Below, one piece after another: positions 2,241-47,390 of a stretch of 64,000 bases of DNA. The stretch's first letter is position 1. Every line of letters begins with the position of its first letter. A program made the position numbers and the translations under genes. A model generated the notes under the pieces. The model was not told the DNA's origin, made no database searches, and was given only the letters and a program-made list of their open reading frames with translations. Location: positions 76,908 to 140,907 of the forward strand of contig CAZWQF010000001.1 in the NCBI GenBank assembly GCA_964636285.1, given 5' to 3'. The DNA comes from an uncultured Candidatus Saccharibacteria bacterium. Its GTDB lineage: Bacteria; Patescibacteriota; WWE3; UBA101185; 2-01-FULL-41-18.

Positions 2241-2933
2241 ATGCAGACCTTTGTAATCGGGATTGTGAACATCATGACTTGGGGGCCTTTGATTTGGTTC
2301 TTTGTCATGTTTGGTCCTCTTCAGCGCTCTTTGCTTGGCGGGCTTATTGGCCTCTTCACAAAGAAAAAGGAACTAAAGATTAGAATCGGGAGCACCAAAA
2401 TCAAGCGATTGCTTGGGCTGGTAGTCTTGAACTATGTAATAAGCTTCATTGGGGTGTGGCTGACTTCCATCCTGTTGAAGTACCTTAATGCTCCCACAAT
2501 CCCAGGCAATACAGGTGGCGTTTTGGCTCGAATTGAGGAGCTTGGGATCGGAATGGTCGAGTATTACTGGAGGTTGTTCTATCTGACAGCGCTGCGTGAG
2601 GAGATGATCTACCGCATAGTTCCGTTCCTGATCTTTTACCTTATTGTCAGGGTGTTTTTCTGGCAATACAAAGACGGTATGGCGGTTAGGGTTTCTCGGA
2701 TTGCGGTGCTTGTCCTAAGCTCCCTAATCTTTTCCATCGCACACTTAAGTCCAGATATTTCCCATGTGGCTACTACCTCCCTGCTCGTAGTCCTGCACTT
2801 TCTTTCTGGGCTCGTCTTCTGGTACACAATGGAGGAGGAAGGGGTTGTTTCTGTAGTAGCAGTTCACTACATTTACGATGTGTACGTGTTTGGAATTTCT
2901 CTGCTGATGGAAACTTTCCTGATCGGTGCCTAG
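2241..2933 (+). CDS. CPBP-family (CAAX protease / Abi) intramembrane glutamic endopeptidase
   Basis: Polytopic 230-aa protein carrying the three CPBP motifs: 'EEMIYR' (EExxxR), 'FSIAHL' (FxxxH) and 'HYIYDV' (HxxxD/N). Confidence 0.7.
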   Translation: MQTFVIGIVNIMTWGPLIWFFVMFGPLQRSLLGGLIGLFTKKKELKIRIGSTKIKRLLGLVVLNYVISFIGVWLTSILLKYLNAPTIPGNTGGVLARIEELGIGMVEYYWRLFYLTALREEMIYRIVPFLIFYLIVRVFFWQYKDGMAVRVSRIAVLVLSSLIFSIAHLSPDISHVATTSLLVVLHFLSGLVFWYTMEEEGVVSVVAVHYIYDVYVFGISLLMETFLIGA

Positions 2934-8679: not shown

Positions 8680-11145
8680 ATGGAAAAAAATTATAATTTT
8701 AAAGAACTTGAGCCTCAAATTTATAAGAAGTGGGAGGAAAGAAAAGCCTTCACTCCTAAAATAGATAAAAATAAAAAGCCCTTCACTATTGTTTTGCCTC
8801 CTCCTAACGCAAGCGGAAAAATGCACACAGGAAACGTGCTCATGATTGCTATAGAGGATATTTTAATCAGATGGAATCGAATGAAAGGGATTCCTTCATT
8901 ATGGGTTCCTGGAACTGACCACGCAGGATTTGAAACACAAATTACCTACGAGAAAGCTTTAGCAAAAGAAGGTAAATCCAGGTTTGATTTTAAAAGAGCA
9001 GAGCTTTACCAAAGAATTTGGGATTTTGTGCAAACAAATAGAAGTGCTGTAGAAGAACAAATAAAACGAATGGGAGCCAGCGTTGACTGGAGCAGAAACA
9101 CTTTCACCTTAGACCCAAGAGTTGTAAGTACAGTTCATGACACCTTTATAAAAATGTATAACGACGGGCTTGTGTATAGGGGAGAGCATATTGTCAACTA
9201 CTGTCCCAAATGCGGAACAACTTTTGCAGATCTTGAGATTATTCATGAAGAAAGAAAAGACCCCTTGTTTTACATTAAGTATAAGCTTGTAGACAGAAAA
9301 CCGAATGAGCCCGAATTTCTTGTTGTAGCAACAGTGAGGCCAGAGACTATTTTTGTAGATACACATTTAGCAGTGAATCCAAAAGATAAAAAGAATTCAA
9401 AATGGGCAAAAGAAAATAGAAAAGTTATTAATCCTTTGAGTGGTGTTGAGATGGAATTTATTGAGGACTCTTTTGTTGATCCAAAGTTTGGGACTGGAAT
9501 AGTAAAGCTGACACCGGCTCACGATAAAAATGATTTTGAAGCAGCAGTTAAGCACGGACTTATGAAAGGCAAAATTTTTGCTGAAGTAAGCATTGTAGAT
9601 ACTCAGGGGAGAATGATAAAGAATAATTTGCCAATTGTTGGAGAAACTAATTTCAAAGAAATTTTTGGAGGGAAGAAAGTTTTGGAAGCAAGAAAAATGG
9701 TAATGGAAAAGCTTCAGACAGATGGAGCTGTTGAGAAGATTGATACAGAGTACCTTCATTCAGTTTCACTTTGTTATAAAGGCAATCACGAAGTAGAGCC
9801 TCTAGTTTTGCCAAACTGGTTTGTAAAAGTTGATGACGAGAAAATTTCGTTTAAAAAACCTGCTTATGAAGCTGTAAAAAAAGGCGAAGTTAAGATATAT
9901 CCAAAGTGGAGGGAAAAGACATATTTGAGATGGATGGAGGAAATGAGGGATTGGCCGATTTCAAGACAAACTATATGGGGGATTCAAATTCCAGTCTGGT
10001 ATCCCGTAACGGGAAATGAAAATCAAATTAATGTATCTTGGGTTGAAGAAATTACCGAAACAGGAGAAAAATTAAATCATACAAACACCTTGGGGTATTT
10101 TTTGGAAAACCTTTCTCATGAAGAGATAATTAAGAAACTGCAGAAAATTAAAGGAGGTTTGCAAAGAGTATTTGCAAAGCCTTTAGTGAGACCTATTCTT
10201 TCAAAAAATGACCCATCTACTGACTCTGAAACTTATTTTCCAGAAACCGATACTTTTGACACATGGTTTTCGTCCGGGCAGTGGCCGTTAGTAACATTAG
10301 GCTTTGGAGATCCTGAAAGAAAAGAAGACTTTGATTATTTTTATCCTACATCAGTTTTGGAAACAGGGTGGGAGATCATTAGATTCTGGGTTTCACGAAT
10401 GATGATGTTCGGAATTTATTTAACGGGAAAAGCCCCTTTCCATTCGATTTATTTACATGGACTTGTAAGGGCGATTGATGGAAAAAAGATGAGCAAAAGC
10501 CTTGGAAATGTGATTAATCCTGAAGAATACATTGCGGAATATGGTGTTGATGCACTGCGAATGGGACTTATTTCAGGAACGGCTGGCGGAAAAGATTTTA
10601 ATTTTCCAAAAGACAAAATAATTGCTTACAGGAATTTTGGAAACAAACTTTGGAACATGGCAAGATTTATGCTCATGATGCTAGAAAAAGCGAATGGGGT
10701 AGACGGTTCCAATGCCCTAAATGAAGCTAACATTGTGTTGGAAAATAACAATAAAGTAGGAAAACTGAATCTAGTAGAAGTTGATGATAAGAAGTCAAAA
10801 AAATTATTAAAAGATGAAGATAAAGAAATTCTTAAAAAACTAAATAGTGTTGTAAAGACTGTTGATAAGAATTTGGAGAAGTTTAGATTTTCACAAGCTG
10901 GAGAAGTGATCTATCAGTTTATGTGGCATGATGTTGCAGATGTATACATAGAACAAGTAAAAGTAAGGGAAGATAAAGAAGTTGCTTTGGGAGTTTTGAT
11001 GCATGTATATAAAACAGGATTAAAGCTTTTGCATCCATTTATGCCTTTTGTAACCGAAGCTATTTGGGATGAGGTTGCTATAACAAATGAGATGTCAGAT
11101 TTGCTACTTGCTGAGTCATTGTGGCCATCTTCTAGCAAGATATAG
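8680..11145 (+). CDS. valS: Valine--tRNA ligase (821 aa, compact)
   Basis: 'KPFTIVLPPPNASGKMHTGNV' (HIGH-type motif), 'KMSKSLGN' (KMSKS) and a ValRS-like N-terminus. Confidence 0.85.
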   Translation: MEKNYNFKELEPQIYKKWEERKAFTPKIDKNKKPFTIVLPPPNASGKMHTGNVLMIAIEDILIRWNRMKGIPSLWVPGTDHAGFETQITYEKALAKEGKSRFDFKRAELYQRIWDFVQTNRSAVEEQIKRMGASVDWSRNTFTLDPRVVSTVHDTFIKMYNDGLVYRGEHIVNYCPKCGTTFADLEIIHEERKDPLFYIKYKLVDRKPNEPEFLVVATVRPETIFVDTHLAVNPKDKKNSKWAKENRKVINPLSGVEMEFIEDSFVDPKFGTGIVKLTPAHDKNDFEAAVKHGLMKGKIFAEVSIVDTQGRMIKNNLPIVGETNFKEIFGGKKVLEARKMVMEKLQTDGAVEKIDTEYLHSVSLCYKGNHEVEPLVLPNWFVKVDDEKISFKKPAYEAVKKGEVKIYPKWREKTYLRWMEEMRDWPISRQTIWGIQIPVWYPVTGNENQINVSWVEEITETGEKLNHTNTLGYFLENLSHEEIIKKLQKIKGGLQRVFAKPLVRPILSKNDPSTDSETYFPETDTFDTWFSSGQWPLVTLGFGDPERKEDFDYFYPTSVLETGWEIIRFWVSRMMMFGIYLTGKAPFHSIYLHGLVRAIDGKKMSKSLGNVINPEEYIAEYGVDALRMGLISGTAGGKDFNFPKDKIIAYRNFGNKLWNMARFMLMMLEKANGVDGSNALNEANIVLENNNKVGKLNLVEVDDKKSKKLLKDEDKEILKKLNSVVKTVDKNLEKFRFSQAGEVIYQFMWHDVADVYIEQVKVREDKEVALGVLMHVYKTGLKLLHPFMPFVTEAIWDEVAITNEMSDLLLAESLWPSSSKI

Positions 11146-11185
11146 TTAAAAGTTTTATTTAATATTCCTCAAGTTAAGAAATGAA

Positions 11186-11221
11186 AAAGCCCCGGCAATC
11201 AGAGTTGAGTGTCGGGGCTTT
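11186..11221 (-). terminator. Rho-independent-type hairpin (AAAGCCCCG ... CGGGGCTTT) followed on the minus strand by a T-rich tract. Terminates the GC-rich minus-strand island operon.
   Basis: Inverted repeat read directly. Minus-strand reading gives stem-loop then TTTTCATTTCTT. Confidence 0.5.
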
Positions 11222-11235
11222 GTGTGGGTTCCTGA

Positions 11236-11619
11236 TCAGATTTCGTGGGTAATTCTGTACCAGGTTATTCGAAAATTGAGGGAGTTTAGAAATGCCTCCC
11301 AGCCCTCATCCCATTTCTTTAGGTGCTCTGGGATTGTACCTTTTGCTACTAGTAATATGTCTGTGTTGGCATCGGATCCTTCAACGTCGAACATACGCAA
11401 GAAGTAGCCTGCGTGCAGAATCATAATTCTTTCTATGGCTCTTTGAATCCTTTCAGGAGGGTTCTGAGCCCATTCCTTGCTCACGCATGAAACCACTTGC
11501 TTGAGATAGATCTCCATGCTTCCTGGATCACCTCTTTTGAATCGATCCCTAAACATCGGAAGGCTCGCTTTGAATATTGTGTCTAGAGTTCTTTCTACGA
11601 GTTCTGCGTCAGGTTGCAT
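11236..11619 (-). CDS. Hypothetical soluble protein (127 aa), last gene of the GC-rich island
   Basis: ORF track. GC-rich codon usage unlike the flanking genes. Confidence 0.5.
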   Translation of the reverse strand: MQPDAELVERTLDTIFKASLPMFRDRFKRGDPGSMEIYLKQVVSCVSKEWAQNPPERIQRAIERIMILHAGYFLRMFDVEGSDANTDILLVAKGTIPEHLKKWDEGWEAFLNSLNFRITWYRITHEI

Positions 11620-11719
11620 CCTGTGTCTCTCCCTATGTTACCTTGCGGTTGAAAAGGCCCGCGGGGAAGGTTGTGAGATAAATCTTCCTTCCTATCCACC
11701 GCGGGCCCTTAAGGTGTTG

Positions 11720-12346
11720 CTAGTGTTGTTGGGCGTTTCCCTGTTCCTGGCTGTGTATTCGTAATGCGCCTAGAACAGCACCCATCAATTGATTCGCAGT
11801 GCCTTCTGCTTCTTGGATTTCTTTCTGTTTGGCTTTCTGGTCCATGAATTGACCTTTTAACGCCTCAATTTGCTTTTTGAGGTGCTGAGGGTCTTGGACG
11901 CCAGGGAAGTTATACCCCCTTCCCTTTGCCACAAACTTGATATCTCCTGTGCTTAGTACCCTGATCAATACCGGATTTACTCCTCGGCCTTCAATCCAGG
12001 CAGCAAATCCAGATGTTAAACCAGAGAACCAGCCTCTATTTACATTGACACTCTCCAGATCCAAAAACTCAACCCCAGCTAGTTCGTCTCTGAGACGACT
12101 AGGTTGCCAGCCTTCATTAATGTTGATCCTTCCGGCATTCATATCCACTGAGATGAAGGCTGTGGAGTGTACAGCATAGTAGAGTGCGTAGAACCCAAGG
12201 GTAAGGGCGGCTATACCGAACAAAACCCAGCCTAAGCTTGGGATTTGGTCAAGCCAGCTTGTGTTCTCTTGAATCCACCATGGCATGGCAATGCTTGCAA
12301 CCGCTCCTACATTCAGTAGTAGCCCTTTAGGCGTAAAGAGCGCCAT
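11720..12346 (-). CDS. Membrane protein with two N-terminal TM helices followed by a bacterial PH-like (YdbS/YdbT-like) soluble domain. The start is more likely at internal Met (MALFTPKG) at 12346 than at 12475.
   Basis: ORF 11720-12475 overlaps the upstream gene by >100 nt. Met44 gives a 22-nt intergenic gap. Two hydrophobic helices are followed by an ~100-aa beta-rich segment ('VLIRVLSTGDIKFVAKG'). Confidence 0.45.
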   Translation of the reverse strand: MALFTPKGLLLNVGAVASIAMPWWIQENTSWLDQIPSLGWVLFGIAALTLGFYALYYAVHSTAFISVDMNAGRININEGWQPSRLRDELAGVEFLDLESVNVNRGWFSGLTSGFAAWIEGRGVNPVLIRVLSTGDIKFVAKGRGYNFPGVQDPQHLKKQIEALKGQFMDQKAKQKEIQEAEGTANQLMGAVLGALRIHSQEQGNAQQH

Positions 12347-12368
12347 TCCAAGCAGATTTCTTCTAACC

Positions 12369-12923
12369 TTAAATTCCGTCTCCGTCTCCGTGTGAGAGGT
12401 GCGGCTTTGCGCTTGTGGGCTCTTCACTTTTGGTGGCCCCAAGCACAGGCGCTGATTCAGCCTGGCTGGGTCCATCCTTTTCCTCAGGTTTGAGAAGAAT
12501 CTGCGTAGCCAGGAGAATTATCCCCATGACAATTAGCCACGTGACTGAGGTCAGGATCCAGTCAAAGTTGAAGAGCTTCCAAATCGCGATAGTGATCGCA
12601 TACATAAGAATCAGGAAGCCGTATCCTTTAAACGGACTTCCTTTTCCTAGGATAGTGATCAGTTTCTTTCCTTGTGTCGTGAGGGTTGTGGAAAGAGCCA
12701 GAAAGAACCCCAGAGCCAGAAGCCCAGAATCAAGCGCAGCGTCAGCAATGATGGCTGCGTTGTCTGGCTTGTAGGGAATATCTTTCATCGATCCCGTGTT
12801 GAATGTTTCCCAGGCACTCTGTATTCCGGTGTACGAAAAGTACACTCCAAATAACACAAAAATGCCGATAGGGATGAGCGCCGAGATCATTGTTCTCATG
12901 TTAAGGTCTTGAGCTGATTTCAT
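12369..12923 (-). CDS. Polytopic membrane protein (about 4 TM), island gene
   Basis: ORF track. Four hydrophobic helices. Ser/Pro/Glu-rich C-terminal tail. Confidence 0.55.
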   Translation of the reverse strand: MKSAQDLNMRTMISALIPIGIFVLFGVYFSYTGIQSAWETFNTGSMKDIPYKPDNAAIIADAALDSGLLALGFFLALSTTLTTQGKKLITILGKGSPFKGYGFLILMYAITIAIWKLFNFDWILTSVTWLIVMGIILLATQILLKPEEKDGPSQAESAPVLGATKSEEPTSAKPHLSHGDGDGI

Positions 12924-14062
12924 TGGTAACTCCTTGTCTTGTTACAGATGTGAAGTCCGTAAGTTTGACATGCTATCGATTGGTTCCTGGGGGGGGCAAT
13001 GTTTGCTGGAGGTTGGTTGGGACTTGGTGGGAGATTGGGAGGTATAACCTCGGGAGGCCCGCCCTTCACAATAGTCGCTGGTCCTTCCTCCATCCAGCCC
13101 GACATATTCGCTTGGATCTCTTCTAAGCGTTTTTCAGGCTCTCCTTCCAGTGGTCTTTGCCCTAGCAGGAAGTTCAAGTCCTTAGCTGTAAGAAGGACCA
13201 CAACGGGTTGAAACTGCCGTGTGTTATCCGGCCAGCTAACTTGAACTTCAAGTGTTGCCCCATCGCTTCTTTCCGGGGCGTTTCCTGTGAACCTACCGGT
13301 TTGGACTTTCAGTCCATAGAGATACAGGAGCTCTTCACCGGTTGGGGTACGTCCAGAGATGTTGAGAACCTTCACCCAGAAGAGCACTTCATAGGCAATA
13401 TGCACTCGTGGGTTGACTTTCAAGACTTCTTCAGCAACCTGTTTCAATCGCGTGGCATTTTCTGGCGTGACTGGGCCGTGAAGTTCATCAACCATGGGCT
13501 TGAGAGCTGTTGCTTGTTCAAGTACCCATATGCCAAGCAAGTCCTTTGGGTAGTTTGATACTGCCAAACGGGCCTGCTCCAAAGCTTTGTTGACGTCAGC
13601 GCCATCGCTACTCAGAGCATATGTATCTGGTGCCGCCCCCGGTTGCAGACCAAAGAGGTACTGAAGTGCCACATGGCTCTCGATCGAACCTGGTTTTGGA
13701 AGGAGCTCCGCAATCGGTGTTTCGACCACAGGGACTTGCACCGTTTGACCTGCTTGCGTAGGGACCAATGCACTTACTGTTGGGGTCACAACGCTTGCTG
13801 GAAAAAGGTTCTCGCCAGTGCTGGCAAAGTAACCTTCTTGAGCGCCAGGGGCAAGGTCTCCTCCCAATTGCTTTGTGTCCCCCACAAAGAAGAAAACTCC
13901 AGCTATGTATTTGTATAGGGAGTCCTTCATATAGGGGTTTCTATATGCCCCTGAAGCTGCGGCGAGAATAACTGACAGTGTGAGGATAAACCCAACCAGT
14001 GCCCTAAACAATTTGGTAGGGGATGTAATTAGTTGAGCTACTCCATCAAGGAAGTCTTTCAT
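12920..14062 (-). CDS. N-terminally membrane-anchored extracytoplasmic protein with a proline-rich C-terminal segment (PPEVIPPNLPPSPNQPPANIAPP), island gene
   Basis: ORF track. Single N-terminal TM. 4-nt overlap (ATGA) with the downstream gene, suggesting translational coupling. Confidence 0.55.
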   Translation of the reverse strand: MKDFLDGVAQLITSPTKLFRALVGFILTLSVILAAASGAYRNPYMKDSLYKYIAGVFFFVGDTKQLGGDLAPGAQEGYFASTGENLFPASVVTPTVSALVPTQAGQTVQVPVVETPIAELLPKPGSIESHVALQYLFGLQPGAAPDTYALSSDGADVNKALEQARLAVSNYPKDLLGIWVLEQATALKPMVDELHGPVTPENATRLKQVAEEVLKVNPRVHIAYEVLFWVKVLNISGRTPTGEELLYLYGLKVQTGRFTGNAPERSDGATLEVQVSWPDNTRQFQPVVVLLTAKDLNFLLGQRPLEGEPEKRLEEIQANMSGWMEEGPATIVKGGPPEVIPPNLPPSPNQPPANIAPPRNQSIACQTYGLHICNKTRSYQ

Positions 14063-14078
14063 TTTTTCCTCGCTTTCC

Positions 14079-16235
14079 TTACGGCATAATTCCGTATTCT
14101 ACAAATTCGCTCTCAGTGAAGAGAGGTGTTGTAGTCATACGCACTATGCTGTATAGGACTTGAATTGTTTGTTGCTCTAGGTTTTGCCCTATCGGCAATC
14201 CAAGAATTACAGATGGGTCTATTGTCCCTGCTTGTTTGCTTGTGATTGGTTGTTCAGGTTGATTCCCTGAGACAGACCACACATAGCCATTTTCTCCTTT
14301 TGTTGCTGCAATAGCGTATGCAATTTTCAGAGATCTCAAGAGGAATAACTGGAGCGGAACATTTTTCTGCGTGCTACCTTTAGCGTCAGAAGTGTACATT
14401 ACCGCTGCGGAGAGTACGCTGTTCCAGCCTTCATCAGCTTGTGTGTTTTGAATCCTTCCTTCTTCATCCCATGCGTTTCCTAGGAATCCGTACTTGTTTT
14501 CCAAGGTTTTGATTTGTGTTGCTCTTTGGCCTAGTGTCTCCCAATACCAAGCGCTTTTTGGGTCGTCCCATGCGCCAGGGTTATAGCCACATAGTGAGCT
14601 CCATATGTCACCTGTAGCAATCCAGCTTCCCCAGCACCCCCTTGTAATGAGGTGCCTAGTAGTGCAATCTGCCACAGAAGATGGGTTGTTCCATGGGTCC
14701 ATTGGGCTGTTTGCACATAGCTGTCCAGGAGCAAAATACGAAGGTAGGATTTGTGTCCTGCCTACAGCCCCAGCAGAGGATCCCATGATTTCAAGTGGGC
14801 TGATAAACCTACCAATTCTTTGTGGTAAGTCAGTTCTGGTGTTGAGCCAGTTTGCAATTGCTACAAGGCCCTCTCGTTGGAGTTTTGCCTCATTTGAAAT
14901 CTTCATGCCTAGCACAACACTTTGGTACCAACTTACTGGCCATCTTTCCTCTACGGCATACCAGGCTATGTGGTAACCCCAAGGGCCAGGAGTAGTCGGA
15001 TCAATGTTTCCCCATTCGTTCTGGTTCGTTTCCCCAAAGGGAATTGAGGCAGCAACGCTTGGCGGAAATACAAATCCATTTTCTCCAGACTCAACAGGAC
15101 TCCCATTTTCATCTCTAGGTACCGCAGCTTTATAGAAAGCCCACAGGAGTTCTGGGTCATATCCAATCTCGGATGCTGCAAGTACAAAAACTCCAGGTGC
15201 CTTGCTTGTTTGAGACTGTACATAACCCTTGGTCACAGAAGGGAGGGGAAAGAGTGGGATTTTTGCGATCACCAGAATTGCAAATACGGAGAGGATCGGC
15301 GACAGAATTGTAAGAACTCTGCTGAAGGTCATTTCCGTGATTCGAATTGGTGCTGTCAAAATCCTAATGGCTCTTCTTAGGTCTGCCACCACTCCCACCA
15401 TTGTGACTTCACGTCTGGGGGTTTGTCTTGGCCTGAATACAAACGTAAATCCGTAATATAGAAGCAGTGTTAATGATGTGATGAGAAGTAGGAGTTGGCT
15501 GAAGACCTGGAAAACCATGCTTGTTAGAAGCTTGGTGTACCATTCCTCCCACCACAGCATTGGAATCTGCACTTTGTTGATTTCTGCAATCTCAAGTGCG
15601 GCTTGCACGCTGTTTTGGATCTGGCTTGAAGTAGCCCCTTCTTCCCCGGTGGTACCATCCGCGTACCCTAGGTACTCCGATGGGTTTAACCACTTAACTT
15701 GCTTCAGGTCCTCCACAGTGTGGATGGTTCTGGGATCAATAGCTGTGACACCAAAGTGCACATGATCCGCATTCCCAAAGCCAGACTCACCGATTCTACC
15801 AACAACTCCAACGAGCTGCCCTTTTTCAACCCAATCTCCAACCTTAACAATTGGATTTAAGGTGATGGATTCCTCATCTAGGTGCACATACTGTGTGTAG
15901 AGCACTTCTGCTCCGCAAGTATGCGCAATCCAGATCGAGTTTTCCCATTTCCCTCCAACTTGATCGGGCCAGTCTCCCATGAGCACAACGCGTCCGCTTT
16001 CGGAAGCGTGTACTGGCGTTCCTGCACCTCCAAGAAGATCAATGCCTGAATGGCTATTTGATACCTCAAAGGGAGTCTCTGCTCCAAAGGCTAGCGCCCC
16101 AACTTTGGCTCCTGGTATAGGAGTATCAAAGTCGCAGCTTGCATCAGCCAATGAAGCATTGGTTATACCTTGTGCTGCTCCTGTTATTGCTAGGAGAGCA
16201 GCTACCAACAAACTTCTCAGTCCTTTGGTTTCCAT
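14079..16235 (-). CDS. Secreted or membrane-embedded bifunctional peptidoglycan hydrolase: N-terminal M23 (LytM) metallopeptidase domain, a central cluster of about 6 TM helices, and a C-terminal family-3 (MltB/SLT_2-like) lytic transglycosylase domain
   Basis: Signal peptide 'METKGLRSLLVAALLAITGAAQG'. M23 motifs 'HSGIDL', 'IWIAHTCGAEVLYTQYVHL', 'GESGFGNADHVHFGV'. Hydrophobic block at residues ~235-330. C-terminal 'SSAGAVGRTQILPSYF' resembles the SLT_2 'S.AGAMGPMQFMPSTF' motif. Confidence 0.65.
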   Translation of the reverse strand: METKGLRSLLVAALLAITGAAQGITNASLADASCDFDTPIPGAKVGALAFGAETPFEVSNSHSGIDLLGGAGTPVHASESGRVVLMGDWPDQVGGKWENSIWIAHTCGAEVLYTQYVHLDEESITLNPIVKVGDWVEKGQLVGVVGRIGESGFGNADHVHFGVTAIDPRTIHTVEDLKQVKWLNPSEYLGYADGTTGEEGATSSQIQNSVQAALEIAEINKVQIPMLWWEEWYTKLLTSMVFQVFSQLLLLITSLTLLLYYGFTFVFRPRQTPRREVTMVGVVADLRRAIRILTAPIRITEMTFSRVLTILSPILSVFAILVIAKIPLFPLPSVTKGYVQSQTSKAPGVFVLAASEIGYDPELLWAFYKAAVPRDENGSPVESGENGFVFPPSVAASIPFGETNQNEWGNIDPTTPGPWGYHIAWYAVEERWPVSWYQSVVLGMKISNEAKLQREGLVAIANWLNTRTDLPQRIGRFISPLEIMGSSAGAVGRTQILPSYFAPGQLCANSPMDPWNNPSSVADCTTRHLITRGCWGSWIATGDIWSSLCGYNPGAWDDPKSAWYWETLGQRATQIKTLENKYGFLGNAWDEEGRIQNTQADEGWNSVLSAAVMYTSDAKGSTQKNVPLQLFLLRSLKIAYAIAATKGENGYVWSVSGNQPEQPITSKQAGTIDPSVILGLPIGQNLEQQTIQVLYSIVRMTTTPLFTESEFVEYGIMP

Positions 16236-16540
16236 CTTGCTCTCCTTTCAGGAGTAGATTTTGGTGCAACTTATGCTCTGCACCTGAGCTTATCTTCCCA
16301 ATTTTCTTTCTCTTACCTAAACGTTCCTTATTTTCTTTTCAAAGTTCAAAGCCCCTCCACCTATCCATCCGATCAACCACATTTAGTAGTTTGACAGTCA
16401 GGTGATATAAATTGTTTTATTGAATAATTTATGGGCTTTTAGATGCAGTGATTTTAGACCCATGTATAAACAGAGTCAAACGGATTTTATGATAACTATA
16501 GGATAATTTGCCTATAACCCAAAGTAGACCTCAATGAAAA

Positions 16541-17224
16541 CTAGTCCTTCTTTTCGTCTTTCTTTGCGGCGGCTTTTGCAGCTTTCTGCTCTTCTGTTAA
16601 CTGCTCTGTAGCAGCAACATTAGCAACAAGCTCTGCCTCTGAAGGTGCTTCAGCTGGCGCTTCTTCCTTCATTTCGGCGTAGTCAATCTTAACTACAAGC
16701 TCGTCCTCTTCTCTTCCAATAACATCAACCTTTGTTCTATCAATCTTAAGGTCTTTAACTGCAATTGACTGATCAAGCTCTATAAGCCCTGTTATATCAA
16801 CATCAATCGAATGGGGAATGTCGGATGGGAAACACTCTACCTCTAACTCATCAATAAGTGTAAGCAAAAGACCTTCTCCTGATTTAACAATTGGGGATTC
16901 CCCTATAAATCTGACTGGGACCTGTGCCTTAATCTTCTCTTTAAGGTTAACTTTATGCAAATTTGCGTGAATAATAAAATCTTTTACTGGATCAAAATCT
17001 ACATCTGAAATTAGAACTTTTCCAAATTCTTTACCATCAAGCTTTACATCAACAAGGGATGTTTCTCCTGCTCTTCTAAAAACTTTATCAAATTCAAGTA
17101 AGCTGAGGGTAATTGCAACAGAATCTTCACCTTTTCCAAAAATTACGCCTGGGATTTGTCCCTTGCTTCTGAGGGTTTTGCTTTTTTTACCAAGTACTGT
17201 TCTTTTTGTTGCATTAAGTTCCAT
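16541..17224 (-). CDS. rplY: 50S ribosomal protein L25 / general stress protein Ctc
   Basis: 'MELNATKRTVLGKKSKTLRSKGQIPGVIFG' is a canonical L25 N-terminus. Acidic, Lys-rich C-terminal extension as in Ctc-type L25. Confidence 0.85.
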   Translation of the reverse strand: MELNATKRTVLGKKSKTLRSKGQIPGVIFGKGEDSVAITLSLLEFDKVFRRAGETSLVDVKLDGKEFGKVLISDVDFDPVKDFIIHANLHKVNLKEKIKAQVPVRFIGESPIVKSGEGLLLTLIDELEVECFPSDIPHSIDVDITGLIELDQSIAVKDLKIDRTKVDVIGREEDELVVKIDYAEMKEEAPAEAPSEAELVANVAATEQLTEEQKAAKAAAKKDEKKD

Positions 17225-17520
17225 AATTTTCCTTTTTTTAATACTAAGTGAAGATCAAGAAGATCGTCACTACTAACTGACTGTTTACCTATAAACTCCT
17301 TAATTTCTTCGGGCAATAAATCTGTTGTCACCGGAAGAATTCCGGAGCCTCCTAGCGTGATTGTTATCATGCTTTCAGCTTTACAGTTTGGACAAGTGAC
17401 ATGAGCTGTCACAGCAACGGGCATTTCTGAAATGGGAACTATACTTGCTCCATCCAGACTGGATCCGCACTTGTAACAGAAGGTTTTTAATAAGTGTTCC
17501 TTAATCAGTTTCTTGTCCAC
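17143..17520 (-). CDS. Small zinc-ribbon protein (two CxxC pairs). Its 3' end overlaps the rplY start by about 80 nt in another frame.
   Basis: 'CYKCGSSL ... CPNCKAE' motifs. ORF-track coordinates overlap 16541-17224. Confidence 0.45.
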   Translation of the reverse strand: MDKKLIKEHLLKTFCYKCGSSLDGASIVPISEMPVAVTAHVTCPNCKAESMITITLGGSGILPVTTDLLPEEIKEFIGKQSVSSDDLLDLHLVLKKGKLWNLMQQKEQYLVKKAKPSEARDKSQA

Positions 17521-17588: not shown

Positions 17589-20500
17589 CTACTTAATTTG
17601 CATGAAAACCTTCACATCTTTATTAAGGTTTCCATTCATTAAATATGTGTTTCCATTTTTATCAAATTTTGGCTCAGTTCTAGTAACACTTTTTCCAAAA
17701 GGCTCGTCAAACATGATTGTGATGGGAATATTCTCTGTGCCCGGCTGTTTTTGCCAGTAAAGATTATAGATCTTTTCGTCTTTTCCAAGCGCCATATTTG
17801 CGGGTAGTGTGTAGTTGAAAATAAGCTCAAACGTTTCTGCTGGGTTTAGCGTAAAGTCGGTTTCAAGAACCTTCTTTCCAAATTCGCTTCCCTCCTTGAA
17901 CGCTTTTGTTTTTGTGATATCTGTTGTTTTTCCTTGCCCGTCTTTTGTGGTGACCGAATGAACAAACGAATCTTTATTAATCATAACTCTTACGTAATCC
18001 TTGTAAGGTCCTCCTGGCCATGCATTGTCTTTTCCGGTATGCACATACTTAAGAGTTAAAGTTCCTTCAAGCGATCCGTCTCTATAGTTATTTTTAAGCT
18101 CGTATTTGTATTCAGGCCTTACAAAGTAATTAGCTTTGTTCGACCCTACATTACTGTCCACAACCATAATAAAGTCTCCTTTGGTTTGATCAATTGCACC
18201 GTCCCAGCCTCTTTCGGAAATCATTTTGGCAATTTTACTGTCCGCCATTGCAAGTAAAATATGCTTTTCTTCAAGATTTTCCATCAGTTTTTGGGCAAGA
18301 GGAGCAACTTTTTCATTCGAAAGGGAAAAGAGTGTTTCCAAAAGTTTGCTTCCAAGAACAGTTAAATAATCTCTCTTTTGCTGTGAACCTGGTGTATAAG
18401 AAGCTTCTGCATGATACTGAGTTTTTTCATATACATTTCCTGAGTTTACCTCTTCATTGTACGCAGTTAGATATATAGGCCCTGTTACATCCAGAATGTC
18501 TTTAATTAACGTCATATCAATGCCAATCACACCGTTAAACTCAGTCCCATTTGCAGTGTTGTACAGTCTTGCAATTGTTTTAGCCGAATCTGGAAAATTT
18601 GGATTCCAGTTCCCATCTCTGATTCTTAGGAAATTTTGTTTTCCAAAAAGTTTAATTGGATCTGGCGCTGATTCTTTAAAGTTTGCCAAATCAAGAAGCC
18701 CATCAATGTTATAGATATCATCAATTGTAATTTCTTTGATTTTTCCTTCTTCCATTGAGAGCACGGCATAAGATCCTATAAACCCACCTGTTGCCCTAAT
18801 CTCATTTTGATTTTGGAATATGATCAAATACTTTCTTGGGTCCTTAACTCCAATAAGATCTGCTATTACTCCAGATGTGTTTTCTCCTACAGTTAAAGCT
18901 TCAATAACCTTTCCTGACATACCTGAAAACTCTTCAAGCTTCTTTTTTTGCGAAGGAAGAAGATAGCTTGTATCAAGTTCTTTGGCTTCTCCAACAGCTC
19001 TCTCAAGATTTTCTTTTGCACTCTTAAAGTTGAGCGACGCTTTTGAAAGATCTTCTTCATTTATCCCTGACTTTGAATTTGGCTTTATGTTACTCCAGAG
19101 ATTTCCATAAGGCTCTATTCCTTGCGATGCCTCCGTGATTGCAGTAGCGGTGTATTCCCCAATTCTTAAAGCTTTTGCGTAAGTTCTAAGTCTTCCCTCT
19201 TGCCTTGTAAGTACAAACATCCAGCCAAGTTTTGAAAATTCCTCTTTTGCTTTTGCAAATTCGGTTTTTGCTTTTGCTGAGCTATCCTTTGCTACTTGAA
19301 GGTTTAGTTTTTCCATTTGGGTTTTTGACGCGTTTAGGTTGTTAAACCCCGAATTCGCAAAGTAGGCTACTTGCACTGCAGGAACAACAGCCATAAAAAT
19401 TATTGCAGTAAAAACCGCAAAGCCTACAGCCCAAGGAATATACCTACCAAAGCCAGGCTTTCCTGTCTGAGATTTTGGTTTTGGCTCAGCCTTCTGCGTC
19501 TTTACTTGAGGGGTAGCAACATTTTGTTTTGCTGGTTTAACGGGCATGGGTACCACAGTCTGAGCAGGGACAATCAAGGGTGCAGTTGGAGTTGGTATTG
19601 TTGGGGCCGTTTGGACTTTTACTCCAGTGAATGTTGAGCCGTCCTTTGTGGTTTTTGGAGGAAGTAACATTGAGATCCAGTCGGAAAAAGACTTGGACTC
19701 TTTTTTGACTGGAGCAGGCTTTGGCGGAGTTAGCGAGACTGCCTGACCTGAAGTTTTGGCCTGCTCCTTGGTGTCTTTTAGACTTGTAATAGAATCTTCA
19801 ATTAATGGACTTTTTTCTATTTTTTCTAAAAACTTTGAGGGTTTAAAGGCTTTGTCATTGAATTCGTATGAATACCACTTTAAAGTTTTTGTGATGCCGT
19901 TTTTTAGGTCTGTTTTTGGTATCCATTTGAGATTTCTAGCTGTGTCACTGGTTGAGGCTCTTATCTCTCTAATTTTATCTGAAACTGCGTTTCTAAACTG
20001 AACTTGTGTTGAAGTGTTTGATAGGCCTTTTACAAGATAGGTAAGCTCTAAAGTGGTAATTGGTTCGTCGCTTGAGAATGTAAATATTTTTCCATCTGTG
20101 TCATCACTAAACACAGTTTTTACAAGTCCAGAAACTACGTCTGCAACAAAAAGATAGTAGTTTTTCTCAAGGCCGTCGCCAAATACTGTTAAGTCCTGAT
20201 GATCAAGGAGAAGCTTTGTGAGTCTTCCAAGCTCTCCTCCAGAAGTAAAGTCCATTCTTGGGCCAAATACTTCGCAGAGTCTGGCAATTCTTGCGTTGAT
20301 TTTATGCTTTTTGTGAAACTCCCAAACAAGTGCCTCCGCAAATCTTTTTGCCTCAATTTGAGAAAACTTATTTTCTTCCTGCTGAGTTCGGCCAAAGTAG
20401 TGCTCAAGGTCAACAGACGAAATAGCCCCTTCGTAAACATCAACAGAAGAGACAAGCAAAAACTTTGCATAAGACCTTTTTGCAAGTTCTAGAAGGTTTT

Positions 20501-20897
20501 TTGTACCTATGGCATTTGTTAAAAGCGAATCAAGGGTAATTTTTTGATCTCCATAAATATAAGATTCAAGACCTGCTAGGTGAAAAACATAGTCAACAGC
20601 TTCAACAATAGGCGGTATGCCGTTATTAATGTCCCATTCGATCAAAGAAAATTTGGGATTGTCCATCAGCGAGCTAAGATGGGCTTTTTTGCCTGTAGAG
20701 AAATTATCAAGTACAACAACACGAGCTCCGTTTACAAGCAGAGCTTCAACAAGATGAGAGCCTATAAAACCAGCTCCTCCTGCTACAAGTACAGTAGGTG
20801 CAAGGGCAGATTTTCTAATTGGTGTTGTATTTTCGGTCATGGGCAGTTTTCTCGCTTTATACATTATATTTACACGGGGTTTTGTTGACAAGAACAA
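17589..20897 (-). CDS. Large fusion protein: N-terminal NAD-dependent sugar epimerase/dehydratase (Rossmann domain), Pro/Thr-rich linker, TM helix, and a C-terminal extracytoplasmic domain of about 600 aa with unknown function
   Basis: 'VLVAGGAGFIGSHLVEALLVNGARVVVLDNFSTGKK' (GxxGxxG SDR/epimerase). Linker '...TPPKPAPVKKE...PTIPTPTAPLIVPAQTVVPMPVKPAKQ'. Hydrophobic 'IPWAVGFAVFTAIIFMAVVPAV'. Large C-terminal domain follows. Confidence 0.7.
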   Translation of the reverse strand: MFLSTKPRVNIMYKARKLPMTENTTPIRKSALAPTVLVAGGAGFIGSHLVEALLVNGARVVVLDNFSTGKKAHLSSLMDNPKFSLIEWDINNGIPPIVEAVDYVFHLAGLESYIYGDQKITLDSLLTNAIGTKNLLELAKRSYAKFLLVSSVDVYEGAISSVDLEHYFGRTQQEENKFSQIEAKRFAEALVWEFHKKHKINARIARLCEVFGPRMDFTSGGELGRLTKLLLDHQDLTVFGDGLEKNYYLFVADVVSGLVKTVFSDDTDGKIFTFSSDEPITTLELTYLVKGLSNTSTQVQFRNAVSDKIREIRASTSDTARNLKWIPKTDLKNGITKTLKWYSYEFNDKAFKPSKFLEKIEKSPLIEDSITSLKDTKEQAKTSGQAVSLTPPKPAPVKKESKSFSDWISMLLPPKTTKDGSTFTGVKVQTAPTIPTPTAPLIVPAQTVVPMPVKPAKQNVATPQVKTQKAEPKPKSQTGKPGFGRYIPWAVGFAVFTAIIFMAVVPAVQVAYFANSGFNNLNASKTQMEKLNLQVAKDSSAKAKTEFAKAKEEFSKLGWMFVLTRQEGRLRTYAKALRIGEYTATAITEASQGIEPYGNLWSNIKPNSKSGINEEDLSKASLNFKSAKENLERAVGEAKELDTSYLLPSQKKKLEEFSGMSGKVIEALTVGENTSGVIADLIGVKDPRKYLIIFQNQNEIRATGGFIGSYAVLSMEEGKIKEITIDDIYNIDGLLDLANFKESAPDPIKLFGKQNFLRIRDGNWNPNFPDSAKTIARLYNTANGTEFNGVIGIDMTLIKDILDVTGPIYLTAYNEEVNSGNVYEKTQYHAEASYTPGSQQKRDYLTVLGSKLLETLFSLSNEKVAPLAQKLMENLEEKHILLAMADSKIAKMISERGWDGAIDQTKGDFIMVVDSNVGSNKANYFVRPEYKYELKNNYRDGSLEGTLTLKYVHTGKDNAWPGGPYKDYVRVMINKDSFVHSVTTKDGQGKTTDITKTKAFKEGSEFGKKVLETDFTLNPAETFELIFNYTLPANMALGKDEKIYNLYWQKQPGTENIPITIMFDEPFGKSVTRTEPKFDKNGNTYLMNGNLNKDVKVFMQIK

Positions 20898-46030: not shown

Positions 46031-47023
46031 TTAACTTCTAGTCATTCTTAGGAGTTTCCATCTAACGTCATTTACAAAGTTGAATGTGTTGTAAATTGCT
46101 GGGTTGATTACAAGGTCGTAGGAATCAACATAAATTATATGCTCGCCACCAAATCCAAGTTTAAAGTTTGTAAATCCATACCACTCGTCAGTCTTGTCCT
46201 CTGGATTAACAGAAGCTCCCCACATATCAAATACCTTGCATCCAGAAAGTTTGCCCATTTTAATTGCTTCCCAGCAGAGGAGTTCGTTTGGAAAAAAGTT
46301 TTGGTGTTTGTTTGTTGAACCTCCATAAGGGTAATAGAGAACACCTTCAAATATAAAAAGCATCCAGGAAGAAATGCATTCATTGCCAAGTTTGGCTGTG
46401 GCAATCTTTGCAATCCCTGCACTGGAGAGGAGTTTATACATTGTTTGGTAATATTCAATTGGCTTTACATAGAACTTTTGCCTTAAGGCTGTTTCGTTGT
46501 GAATTCTGTAAAAAGTTTCAAGGGCCTCTTCTGATTTTTGCCCCTGAGTACCGTCATCAAAATCAATTACAATCCCTGATTTTTCTGCTTTTTTAATGTT
46601 GTACCTTTTTTTGTGGTGCATTGCAGAAAGCAAATCTTCCTCGGATTTTGTGAGGTCAAGCAAAACATTTCCTTGAGCAAATGTAGTTTTTTTGGCTTTT
46701 GATGCGTTGCTTGTCAAAATATTTTCTAGGCTGTCACTAGTGCTGTTTTTAATAACCATTGGACAATCTAGATTGATATAGGCGCACCCCTCTTTTTGCG
46801 CAGACTCTTTAAGTTTTTCAAAGTCTATAGTTTCAGGATTAACTTTTGGAGCGTATCCAACATAAAAATTTGTGAAAGGGATTTTGTGTTTTGTGTATTG
46901 GACGCCTCCAGCCCTAACTGCTGGAGTGCCGTAATTTGTCTTAAATTCACCCCACTTTTCCGACTGGAGAAAGTGTTTGTAGCTTGTCATCACAGCAAAA
47001 TTATAGCATAGTAAATTCAACAC
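46031..47023 (-). CDS. FemX/MurM-like FemAB-family peptidoglycan peptidyltransferase, paralog 3
   Basis: 'SYKHFLQSEKWGEFKTNYGTPAV' closely matches the FemX/MurM N-terminal 'FLQSxxWGEVK' signature. Confidence 0.65.
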   Translation of the reverse strand: MLNLLCYNFAVMTSYKHFLQSEKWGEFKTNYGTPAVRAGGVQYTKHKIPFTNFYVGYAPKVNPETIDFEKLKESAQKEGCAYINLDCPMVIKNSTSDSLENILTSNASKAKKTTFAQGNVLLDLTKSEEDLLSAMHHKKRYNIKKAEKSGIVIDFDDGTQGQKSEEALETFYRIHNETALRQKFYVKPIEYYQTMYKLLSSAGIAKIATAKLGNECISSWMLFIFEGVLYYPYGGSTNKHQNFFPNELLCWEAIKMGKLSGCKVFDMWGASVNPEDKTDEWYGFTNFKLGFGGEHIIYVDSYDLVINPAIYNTFNFVNDVRWKLLRMTRS

Positions 47024-47080
47024 GTGATTATTATACTAACCTATAGTATAATATATCTAATAAAAGGAAAGGAGCCTGAA

Positions 47081-47302
47081 ATGGCTTACGATAGGGAAGA
47101 AGAAGGGTTTGGGGTTGCGAGCCCAGATGAAGCCAGCAGAATGAGGCAGTACGCTCGGACTCAATCTGCTCCGTCGAAACTGGTGGCGAGGAGCGGCACT
47201 CGCTATTGCCCTAAACACCCCTTGGATAGACTTCGAGCGGTGAATGCCTCCAAGAAGTTCGTCTGCGATGTGCCGGGATGTGGACATTCAGAGCGCTTCT
47301 AG
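47081..47302 (+). CDS. Small (73 aa) strongly GC-rich ORF encoding an Arg-rich, Cys/His-containing (zinc-ribbon or C2H2-like) protein. A good GGAGG-type RBS precedes it. Start taken at Met (MAYDREEEG), not the tool start 47024.
   Basis: 'aaaggaaaggagcctgaaATG'. 'RYCPKHP...FVCDVPGCGHSERF'. Composition sharply different from flanks. Followed by a hairpin. Confidence 0.4.
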   Translation: MAYDREEEGFGVASPDEASRMRQYARTQSAPSKLVARSGTRYCPKHPLDRLRAVNASKKFVCDVPGCGHSERF

Positions 47303-47311
47303 GGCCTAAAA

Positions 47312-47368
47312 AAGCCGGGAGGGCGGATACAAAGTGAAGATTTCACAATGTGTTCGTTCTCCCGGCTT
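47312..47368 (+). terminator. Long-loop hairpin (AAGCCGGGAG ... CTCCCGGCTT) directly 3' of the GC-rich small ORF
   Basis: 10-bp inverted repeat read directly. Confidence 0.35.
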
Positions 47369-47390
47369 CTGCGTTCTAAGACCTCAATTT

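Follow-up and report, generated by a model that had tools for sequence, protein, structure and literature searches.

Gene content and organization of the valS-rplY interval

We analyzed a 64,000-nucleotide stretch of DNA (the window) in which five genes, all on the minus strand, lie between valS and rplY. The features of this locus, and the evidence on which each was annotated, are as follows.

8680 to 11145, plus strand: valS, native flank (closest relatives and CPR synteny)
11186 to 11221: hairpin in the gap that separates the stops of the convergent genes valS (11145) and gene 5 (11236) (inverted repeat and terminator scan)
11236 to 11619, minus strand: gene 5, 127 aa, soluble (no TM segment; GC3 0.46)
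11720 to 12346, minus strand (ORF to 12475): gene 4, 208 aa (gene call on an independent Logan contig)
12369 to 12923, minus strand: gene 3, 184 aa, 4-TM membrane protein (hydropathy)
12920 to 14062, minus strand: gene 2, 380 aa, anchored by a single N-terminal TM segment, with a Pro-rich tail at the C terminus
14079 to 16235, minus strand: gene 1, 718 aa (ORF, Pfam M23, homologues, hydropathy, LT model and fold searches)
14466 to 15227, minus strand: gene 1 lytic transglycosylase (LT)-like domain, aa 337-590 (structure and profiles)
15258 to 15521, minus strand: gene 1 membrane hairpin (Kyte-Doolittle peaks; model helices aa 239-266 and 301-325)
15744 to 16055, minus strand: gene 1 M23 (LytM) metallopeptidase domain, aa 61-164 (Pfam)
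16164 to 16235, minus strand: gene 1 signal peptide, ~aa 1-24 (hydrophobic aa 6-24; model helix aa 3-21)
16236 to 16540, minus strand: 305-nt leader, from the rplY stop to the gene 1 start
16541 to 17224, minus strand: rplY (L25/TL5), native flank (Pfam domains; GC3 0.276)

The five reading frames are joined, as originally predicted, by coupled or short-gap junctions (from gene 1 to gene 5, a 16-nt gap, a 4-nt overlap of the gene 3 start with the gene 2 stop, a 22-nt gap and a 100-nt gap). The hairpin that was expected to close the unit is real: it is GC-rich, has 16-nt arms that are 88% complementary and a T-run on the minus strand, and is likely a bidirectional terminator. At the other end, GC content falls to the native level from ~16300 within the leader, which contains a promoter-like TTGACT-17-TAAAAT at 16479..16451 and had no match in Rfam at E <= 1. 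No terminator-like site was found on the minus strand of the leader, so that read-through from rplY is possible. The closest valS relatives (56-61% identity) are of the Patescibacteria/Microgenomates type, which places the window in the CPR, and the valS flank is syntenic with CPR contigs L016 and L017. Neighboring genes in the window include tsaD, valS, rplY, Epimerase-DUF4012, Wzz, GroEL and similar.

Base composition and borders of the island

The GC content of 11180-16420 was 0.479, relative to 0.380 in the remainder of the window, consistent with the GC-rich island that had been predicted here. Among 194 background windows of equal length the highest value was 0.402, and the island lay 7 SD above them; tetranucleotide usage was likewise atypical, with a distance of 2.6-3.0 for the island and ~1.0 for the background. 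The steps in GC content were placed at ~11200 and ~16300. GC3 was 0.42-0.54 in the island genes and 0.32 +/- 0.06 in the background. Enrichment of the operon proteins in W, P, G, A and Q adds ~0.05 to their expected GC, but this amino-acid bias leaves unaccounted for a GC3 excess of 0.10-0.17 over the expectation from native codon preference, or 2-3 background SD; the operon block is compositionally atypical at synonymous sites. A search for flanking att repeats revealed no att-like repeats, and none beyond chance. No tRNA that could have served as a tRNA or tmRNA target was present at the island borders, and no integrase, transposase or recombinase was encoded among the neighboring genes.

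The gene 1 product contains an M23 peptidase and a divergent lytic transglycosylase-like domain

The gene 1 protein, for which we found 17 full-length homologues, consists in order of a signal peptide (with no lipobox), an M23 domain, a two-helix TM hairpin, a divergent family-3-like LT domain and a conserved C-terminal region. The original prediction of a polytopic core of about six TM helices was not upheld by hydropathy and models, which gave a signal peptide and two TM helices only: TM1 (~aa 239-266) and TM2 (~aa 305-326), separated by an Arg-rich loop. By the positive-inside rule, both catalytic domains would lie outside the membrane. Confidence in the full-length model was low (pLDDT 43), and it gives no arrangement of the two heads.

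The expected M23 domain (PF01551) was recovered with 56.9 bits (cut-off 28.7; E 2.5e-15), with its HxxxD, YxH and HxH motifs all in place. The catalytic residues H62, D66, H118, H158 and H160 were intact when their codons were checked, and H62-S-G-I-D66, Y-V-H118-L and H158-V-H160 aligned with the conserved motifs HxGxD, YxHL and HxHF of TagE, Csd3-type proteins and lysostaphin. Gene 1 shares all Zn ligands and the catalytic His residues with the M23/LytM endopeptidases (lysostaphin, LytM, Csd3/TagE, MepM, ShyA), but differs from them in that an LT domain is joined to its M23 domain through a membrane hairpin.

The LT assignment held by structure and profiles but stayed below Pfam thresholds. 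The predicted structure of this domain is a lysozyme-like LT fold nearest to Slt35/SltB, with low Foldseek TM-scores (0.31-0.41). SLT_2 (PF13406) matched the window protein with 12.5-14.3 bits, below the cut-off of 24.3, and 11 of 28 family members gave similarly weak matches (best E 2.6e-5; 14-17 bits, gathering threshold 24.3); the TIGR MltB_2 match (E 0.052) was also below cut-off. The putative catalytic Glu, E402, lies in a GETN motif (codon 15030-15032), and GRTQ and YNPG motifs are also present. Across the 28 members this Glu (GET), G..Q and YNP are invariant, and the AGAxGxxQ block aligns at the sequence level with SltB1 and SltB3. In the aligned core, however, the domain shares just 17-21% identity with these family 3 enzymes (MltB/Slt35, SltB1, SltB3). 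The gene 1 domain also conserves Cys and Trp residues at positions specific to it, and it always comes after a TM hairpin and a further wall-modifying domain. Furthermore, an exhaustive HMM search with the gene 1 family retrieved no ordinary SLT_2 protein. Because the scores are under the Pfam and NCBIfam cut-offs and the TM-scores are low, the chemistry of this domain could be lysozyme-type hydrolysis instead of transglycosylation.

Genes 2 to 4 have counterparts in related loci, and gene 5 is an orphan

Gene 2 is homologous to an operon partner of ~400 aa (E 3.9e-13 with a profile built from Anaerolineales sequences), and its tblastn matches are colinear in related loci. Most other copies of this partner (L023, L022, L002, L004) carry a LysM domain at the C terminus. 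We detected no LysM, and no Pfam match, in the gene 2 product of the window, which has lost this domain. Gene 3 weakly matches its positional counterpart in Anaerolineales (profile E 1.6e-4; common motif L..LG.G....G). Gene 4, whose product combines a soluble domain of ~110 aa with one or two TM helices at the N terminus, showed a weak profile match to Anaerolineales gene 4 (E 3.6e-6). It had been described as PH-like (bPH_2), but seven aligned members yielded no Pfam match at E <= 10, and there was no relevant PDB sequence match and no PDB family. Gene 5 is an orphan that is also GC-rich: tblastn found no homologue in any of 39 loci, it forms a singleton cluster, and no family was found in Pfam, PHROG, NCBIfam or PADLOC.

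The operon is rare and is found in CPR bacteria and Anaerolineales

Genes 1 to 4 are a rare, conserved and apparently undescribed membrane set built around an M23 + LT fusion, in keeping with the prediction of such a fusion with a partner set that matches no described system. Only 37 clusters of the gene 1 family were present in 1.84 billion representatives, and no relative of more than 53% identity was found among ~15 billion proteins. Beyond the window, the operon was confined to Anaerolineales (Chloroflexota) and a small number of other CPR genomes; the nearest relatives of the LT domain (49-53% identity) are from Anaerolineales. It lies directly downstream of rplY in the window and in loci L023 and L019, and L023 additionally has the same Zn-ribbon-rplY synteny. 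The block is not a core locus found throughout the lineage, as the two CPR relatives L016 and L017 lack it at the valS-rplY junction and have unrelated genes there. The operon thus fills a variable slot at the convergent valS-rplY junction of a small-genome CPR bacterium.

The copies differ between the two groups. In all Anaerolineales copies the first M23 Zn ligand (His) is replaced by Pro, and the window keeps the His; this ligand is likewise replaced in EnvC and NlpD, which are LytM factors without catalytic activity. The Anaerolineales copies lie among housekeeping genes, at native GC, in genomes of free-living type, and only in these loci is the operon at compositional equilibrium. Every CPR-type copy is GC-richer than its own flanks, in all seven lower-GC contexts, and these copies are deeply diverged from each other.

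Origin of the operon

As the cassette is common only to Patescibacteria and Anaerolineales, it must have crossed between these groups at least once. The distinct composition of the block, as predicted, was borne out, but its suggested horizontal acquisition as a simple recent event is doubtful, given the rplY adjacency in L023 and L019 and the GC excess of all CPR-type copies. A recent import from a GC-rich, Anaerolineales-like donor, which would have left a foreign, partly ameliorated block between valS and rplY, is in our judgment rather unlikely. It would account for a GC and GC3 far over background, for an equilibrium found solely in Anaerolineales, for the Anaerolineales relatives of the LT domain and for the absence of the operon from this site in L016 and L017. 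However, a recent donor is hard to reconcile with the 53% ceiling on identity, with an island GC (0.48) far under that of Anaerolineales (0.56-0.70), with the retention in the window of a canonical M23 His that is missing from every Anaerolineales copy, with the same rplY-adjacent place in L023 and L019 and with the missing att repeats and integrase. Moreover, the Anaerolineales clade was shallow and nested in an NJ tree, the root of which is a midpoint guess. The window copy is not demonstrably a recent import.

Alternatively, and we offer this tentatively, the operon may be an old resident of a CPR subclade downstream of rplY that was lost in many lineages and passed from CPR to Anaerolineales, with an intrinsic GC excess. 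Adjacency to rplY in three deeply diverged copies is consistent with this history, as is the location of the deepest diversity in CPR-type contexts (the flanks of L020 are annotated as Patescibacteria), and so are the GC excess that persists in each of the seven lower-GC contexts, even though the copies are deeply diverged, and the contribution of amino-acid composition to expected GC. Against old residence stand the part of the GC3 excess that amino-acid bias leaves, the extreme rarity of the gene 1 family in CPR, the unrelated genes at the site in two relatives and a tree root that rests on the midpoint guess. Intrinsic GC would here combine amino-acid bias with selected codons, for example a throttled translation of a dangerous autolysin; we are aware of no earlier case in which a GC-rich codon bias of this sort is maintained. 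A GC excess in all CPR-type copies together with their deep divergence fits neither recent transfer nor old residence.

It is extremely improbable that the block is an assembly or binning artefact, in which a fragment of a GC-rich organism was chimerically joined into a CPR contig. The sharp GC step at either end could suggest such a chimera, but an independent Logan assembly of SRR12762304 shows the same joins, the CPR genes that flank the block on either side lie on a single contig and share synteny with L016 and L017, similar layouts of a GC-rich operon in lower-GC flanks occur in five other assemblies, and the GC steps fall in intergenic DNA beside the terminator and the leader.

It is also highly improbable that the block is what remains of a prophage (as a tail or endolysin module) or of a conjugative element (as a channel-assembly hydrolase of the VirB1/PrgK type). 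M23 + LT combinations are known in such elements, and PHROG matches included endolysins and tape-measure proteins, with the M23 part covered. Yet plasmid and phage tblastn matches were limited to residues ~6-230, the generic M23 part: 192 plasmid records matched gene 1 over this part and none over the LT domain. Two profiles of the gene 1 family found no viral relatives in 2.9 million viral contigs (IMG/VR), a BFVD structural search gave no significant match (best E 0.31), and no VirB4/VirD4, integrase, capsid or tail genes occurred in the window neighborhood or related loci, so that the proposed conjugative or phage link was not borne out. PrgK (pCF10), TraG (pIP501) and CwlT (ICEBs1) are membrane-anchored glycan- and peptide-cutting enzymes that open the wall locally (PMC12102498 and references therein). 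Gene 1 resembles these VirB1-type hydrolases of monoderm conjugation systems in combining both kinds of domain, but they use SLT (family 1) or muramidase with CHAP or NlpC/P60 and lie inside T4SS clusters without the three partner genes, whereas gene 1 has no T4SS neighbors and, outside its M23 part, no homologue on a plasmid or ICE.

Proposed function

We lean, with somewhat better than even confidence, toward a four-gene envelope operon plus an orphan gene, in which the operon encodes a membrane-tethered peptidoglycan-cutting machine for the cell's own wall. The signal peptide would export the gene 1 protein, its M23 metallo-endopeptidase would cut peptide cross-links, and the divergent lytic transglycosylase that follows the two-helix hairpin would cut glycan strands. 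The two catalytic heads would thus flank the hairpin on the outside of the membrane of the producing cell itself, with the LT head, in the predicted topology, only ~20 residues beyond TM2 and the bilayer. The three co-conserved membrane proteins of genes 2 to 4, with one, four and two TM helices, most likely position or restrain this enzyme, presumably as a four-protein complex, and the single-pass partner of the gene 2 type would bind the wall via LysM in most copies. The likeliest job of such a machine is local opening or turnover of the own wall, in daughter-cell separation, wall growth or insertion of an envelope structure. In the SpoIID-SpoIIM-SpoIIP system of Bacillus engulfment, glycan- and peptide-cleaving enzymes on a polytopic scaffold remodel the cell's own wall locally. 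This is a functional analogy only, as those enzymes are separate proteins of unrelated families (SpoIID fold, amidase) and no homology was detected.

The original prediction also raised a module for host-wall attack or attachment, in which the two-headed hydrolase of an episymbiont would open the host wall at the contact site. We consider this improbable. The window is a CPR genome, the family is common only to CPR and Anaerolineales, which could reflect physical association, and the M23 head is complete in the window and degenerate in Anaerolineales. However, the hairpin and short linkers would hold the enzyme in the membrane of its producer, from which the wall of another cell would be hard to reach; the Anaerolineales copies sit among housekeeping genes at native GC in free-living-type genomes; and no secretion-system, pilus or adhesin genes adjoin the operon.

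Own-wall remodeling remains our preferred reading. It is a still longer shot that the operon is an unrecognized machine of four components for opening walls, which Patescibacteria and Anaerolineales have exchanged specifically with each other as a consequence of physical episymbiosis, and whose catalytically complete version would serve the symbiont to breach or fuse the two walls at the contact zone. If this were true, the GC-rich codon usage that persists in every CPR copy would mean either that the operon was acquired from hosts again and again or that selection throttles the translation of a dangerous lysin.

Results

Architecture of the large protein and its partners

The genes and sites around the island (11180-16420) are as follows.

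8680-11145 (+), valS
11146-11235, valS-side interval of the valS/rplY junction
11186-11221, hairpin
11236-11619 (-), gene 5, orphan gene
11720-12346 (-), gene 4
12369-12923 (-), gene 3
12920-14062 (-), gene 2
14079-16235 (-), gene 1, encoding the 718-aa large protein
16236-16540, rplY-side interval of the junction and leader upstream of gene 1, with a promoter-like site
16541-17224 (-), rplY
17143-17520 (-), zinc-ribbon ORF of 125 aa, overlapping the rplY start by 82 nt

The original prediction described gene 1 as an M23 peptidase and a lytic transglycosylase (LT) domain flanking a core of about six transmembrane helices. The reading of the two domains was right. Pfam placed Peptidase_M23 at residues 61-164 (E 2.5e-15), and alignment to solved M23 enzymes showed that H62, D66, H118, H158 and H160, forming the HxxxD, central His and HxH elements, are all present. 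However, the membrane core was smaller than that: besides the signal peptide, hydropathy and structure models showed only two transmembrane helices, at residues ~239-266 and ~305-326. An Arg-rich loop lies between these helices, and by the positive-inside rule the M23 and LT domains would both face outward. The LT domain forms a separate, divergent branch that lies outside SLT_2 by the curated criterion, and because it falls below Pfam and NCBIfam thresholds, proteins of this family carry the annotation 'M23 peptidase' or 'hypothetical'. Modeled at full length with AF2 (17 sequences), the 718-aa protein gave an unusable result (pLDDT 43), and a domain-only model built with 28 diverse sequences was used instead.

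Wherever a locus extended far enough, the genes downstream of the large gene had a constant order: one for a protein of ~400 aa, usually with a terminal LysM domain, one for a protein of 160-250 aa with four transmembrane helices, and one for a protein of 200-300 aa with N-terminal transmembrane helices. Profiles of the Anaerolineales genes matched window gene 2 (E 3.9e-13), gene 3 (1.6e-4) and gene 4 (3.6e-6), and tblastn matches to the partner genes were colinear, in agreement with the profiles. No LysM domain was detectable in window gene 2, the PH-like domain proposed for gene 4 was without sequence support, and gene 5 had no relative in any search; we use "operon" here for genes 1-4. We rejected gene 3 as a holin, as matches to Phage_holin_3_6 were faint and sub-threshold in some homologues, with none for window gene 3. 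These matches to holin superfamily III (E 3e-4) were seen in locus L022 (6291-7058) and in two of ten Anaerolineales gene-3 copies. L022 also carries HicA/HicB toxin-antitoxin genes (153-1307) directly upstream of the operon, an additional 290-aa gene inserted between genes 1 and 2, and a canonical M23 domain.

Size, variants and taxonomic range of the family

A word-indexed search recovered 17 homologues of the large protein, and an exhaustive HMM scan yielded 37 clusters at E <= 0.001 among 1.84 billion representatives; querying with the domain alignment added little (3 proteins). In more distant members the N-terminal heads are swapped or supplemented (Amidase_2, polysaccharide deacetylase, NAGPA and M23), but hairpin, LT domain and all three partners are retained. 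Proteins P0158, P0160, P0166, P0168 and P0171 (860-1300 aa) have these heads stacked before the hairpin and LT domain, as exemplified by the stacked-head member of locus L039 (2386-6051). The operon backbone is constant and its heads are variable.

The M23 head is canonical in the window copy and in homologues P0153 and P0159. In the Anaerolineales clade and some other copies, Pro replaces the His that serves as first zinc ligand of the M23-like head, with 'PGID' in place of 'HxGxD'; these copies are loci L004, L006-L015 and L023 (protein P0151) and homologue P0154. We take these Pro-substituted heads to resemble non-catalytic LytM factors, and the Pro-bearing head is probably a non-catalytic LytM-type domain.

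All ten GTDB matches, among 185,579 species representatives, were Anaerolineales or Anaerolineae MAGs. The JGI metagenome loci (15/15) were at 56-70% GC, and in these high-GC loci operon GC equalled flank GC (-0.01 to +0.02 in most). Two of the six lower-GC loci (L018, L019, L020, L022, L023 and L039) were tied to Patescibacteria (CPR): L020, whose flanks are annotated Patescibacteria by NCBI, and L023, by synteny. Among the copies assigned to a lineage, the family is restricted to Patescibacteria and Anaerolineales.

Composition and transcriptional context of the island

As originally predicted, five minus-strand ORFs with tight junctions occupy the block, and an independent Logan assembly (run SRR12762304) contained the identical gene set in identical context. 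The compositional distinctness of the island was likewise borne out: GC was 0.479, compared to 0.380 in the rest of the window, which is 7 SD above 194 same-size background windows (maximum 0.402), and the tetranucleotide distance from background was 2.6-3.0, as opposed to about 1.0. GC steps were located at about 11200 and about 16300 (200-nt resolution). This difference extends to synonymous sites, with GC3 of 0.42-0.54 in island genes vs 0.32 +/- 0.06 in the roughly 56 other window ORFs of at least 90 aa. Island GC3 was 0.10-0.17 above the expectation from native codon preferences, where the background observed-minus-expected spread was 0.05. Amino-acid bias contributes another ~0.05 GC; the island proteins are enriched in W, P, Q, G and A, and depleted in K. 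Searches for att-type flanking repeats at the island gave chance-level short matches only.

The predicted hairpin is real and is placed between the convergent valS and gene 5. The leader carries a promoter-like site. A terminator scan gave no candidate after rplY, so that co-transcription of the operon with rplY is possible. No known RNA element or riboswitch was matched by Rfam in the leaders of the window, L019, L022 or L023.

Two other regions of the window were conspicuous in composition. A local GC peak of 0.45 at 47000-47400 had no Rfam match; part of it is accounted for by a Gly-rich stretch, the C-terminus of a membrane protein of 604 aa (47391-49205, minus strand). The window maximum of GC3 (0.58) belongs to an Rce1-like CAAX protease gene (2241-2933, plus strand, 230 aa; Pfam E 4.8e-5) that begins 200 nt past the tmRNA gene (1654-2041); the gene may be another small insertion of foreign origin, at tmRNA, a classic integration target.

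Genomic neighborhood

The window is CPR by its valS, whose closest relatives (56-61% identity) carry the names Patescibacteria, Woesebacteria, Levybacteria, Microgenomates or WWE3, and its neighborhood is syntenic with the CPR contigs L016 and L017. In these contigs a lone, unrelated small ORF lies between valS and rplY (junction intervals 10327-10779 in L016 and 10353-10868 in L017), which marks the junction as a variable slot and the operon as no core feature of the lineage; no remnants of these ORFs were found in the window. Every CPR genome examined had a different, unrelated gene at this convergent junction. The zinc-ribbon ORF and rplY form a conserved pair, also present in L017 (54% identity) and L023 (48%). 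The valS product has 821 aa. Nearly all of its closest relatives are some 40-70 aa shorter (742-783 aa); the exception, P0057, has 827 aa.

The operon's neighbors (tsaD, valS, rplY, Epimerase-DUF4012, Wzz, GroEL, PEGA-SH3, Wzy_C and UbiA) are housekeeping and envelope-polysaccharide genes. The analogies to conjugative elements and phages that had been drawn earlier did not hold: matches in plasmids and phages were confined to the generic M23 part of gene 1, and the window neighborhood contained no T4SS, integrase or virion gene. Two profiles gave no match in IMG/VR, BFVD gave no significant structural match, and none of the PADLOC defence-system models matched. The neighboring epimerase gene (17589-20897, minus strand) has a product of 1102 aa that joins an NAD-dependent sugar epimerase to a DUF4012 domain, downstream of a Pro-rich linker; the DUF4012 protein of L016 (948 aa) had no epimerase match.

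Discussion

The prediction that the island was horizontally acquired is supported in part. We consider import from a GC-rich donor and old residence in CPR to be about equally probable. Import fits the atypical composition, the Anaerolineales-only GTDB matches and the absence of the operon from the slot in L016 and L017; however, a recent transfer from Anaerolineales would leave unexplained both the window's canonical M23 and the deep divergence of the family, in which lower-GC-context copies are 27-53% identical to one another and to Anaerolineales. The Anaerolineales clade itself has little depth (63-69% internal identity) and, in a midpoint-rooted NJ tree, branches from within the lower-GC-context copies. 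The rplY-adjacent copies also complicate the import reading. L023, which encodes the nearest non-Anaerolineales relative of the window protein (50% identity in the LT domain), has the zinc-ribbon ORF, rplY and operon in exactly the window's order, and L019, whose member is far more distant (31%), has an rplY fragment directly upstream. Old residence, in turn, leaves the unameliorated codon usage unexplained. Wherever the context is of lower GC, the operon is richer in GC than its flanks (window, +0.10; L018, +0.11; L023, +0.12; L039, +0.08; L022, +0.07; L020 and L019, +0.05 each), and GC3, compared for six of these, is in excess as well in the window, L018, L022, L023 and L039, and only marginally in L020.

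The product of gene 1, predicted to be exported, has a membrane hairpin flanked by an M23 head with complete catalytic residues and by an LT-fold head. Three membrane proteins, including one that normally binds the wall through LysM, are conserved along with it. We suggest that the four proteins assemble into a complex within the producer's own membrane and that this complex would cut both cross-links and glycan strands in the wall immediately above it. The second transmembrane helix and the LT domain are only ~20 residues apart, which favors the cell's own wall over that of a neighbor. Cell separation, wall turnover or the making of space for envelope structures are plausible roles. Attack on a host cell is a less probable alternative, for which we saw no direct support.

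Peptidoglycan hydrolases in general are well known. Less familiar is a conserved four-gene unit in which a glycan-cutting head is joined via a membrane hairpin to one that cuts peptides or otherwise modifies the wall, accompanied by three constant membrane partners, and we found no description of this operon in the literature on related terms. The system is a rare new form of membrane-tethered peptidoglycan hydrolase, with an unusual, restricted distribution and an unexplained compositional signature. Its occurrence only in Patescibacteria and Anaerolineales points to gene flow between these lineages; how the two are related, ecologically or evolutionarily, is a matter of debate. The recurrent GC excess and the repeated position after rplY are concrete, testable puzzles concerning how such a cassette moves or is maintained, and a definition of the family would improve the annotation of CPR and Chloroflexota envelopes.
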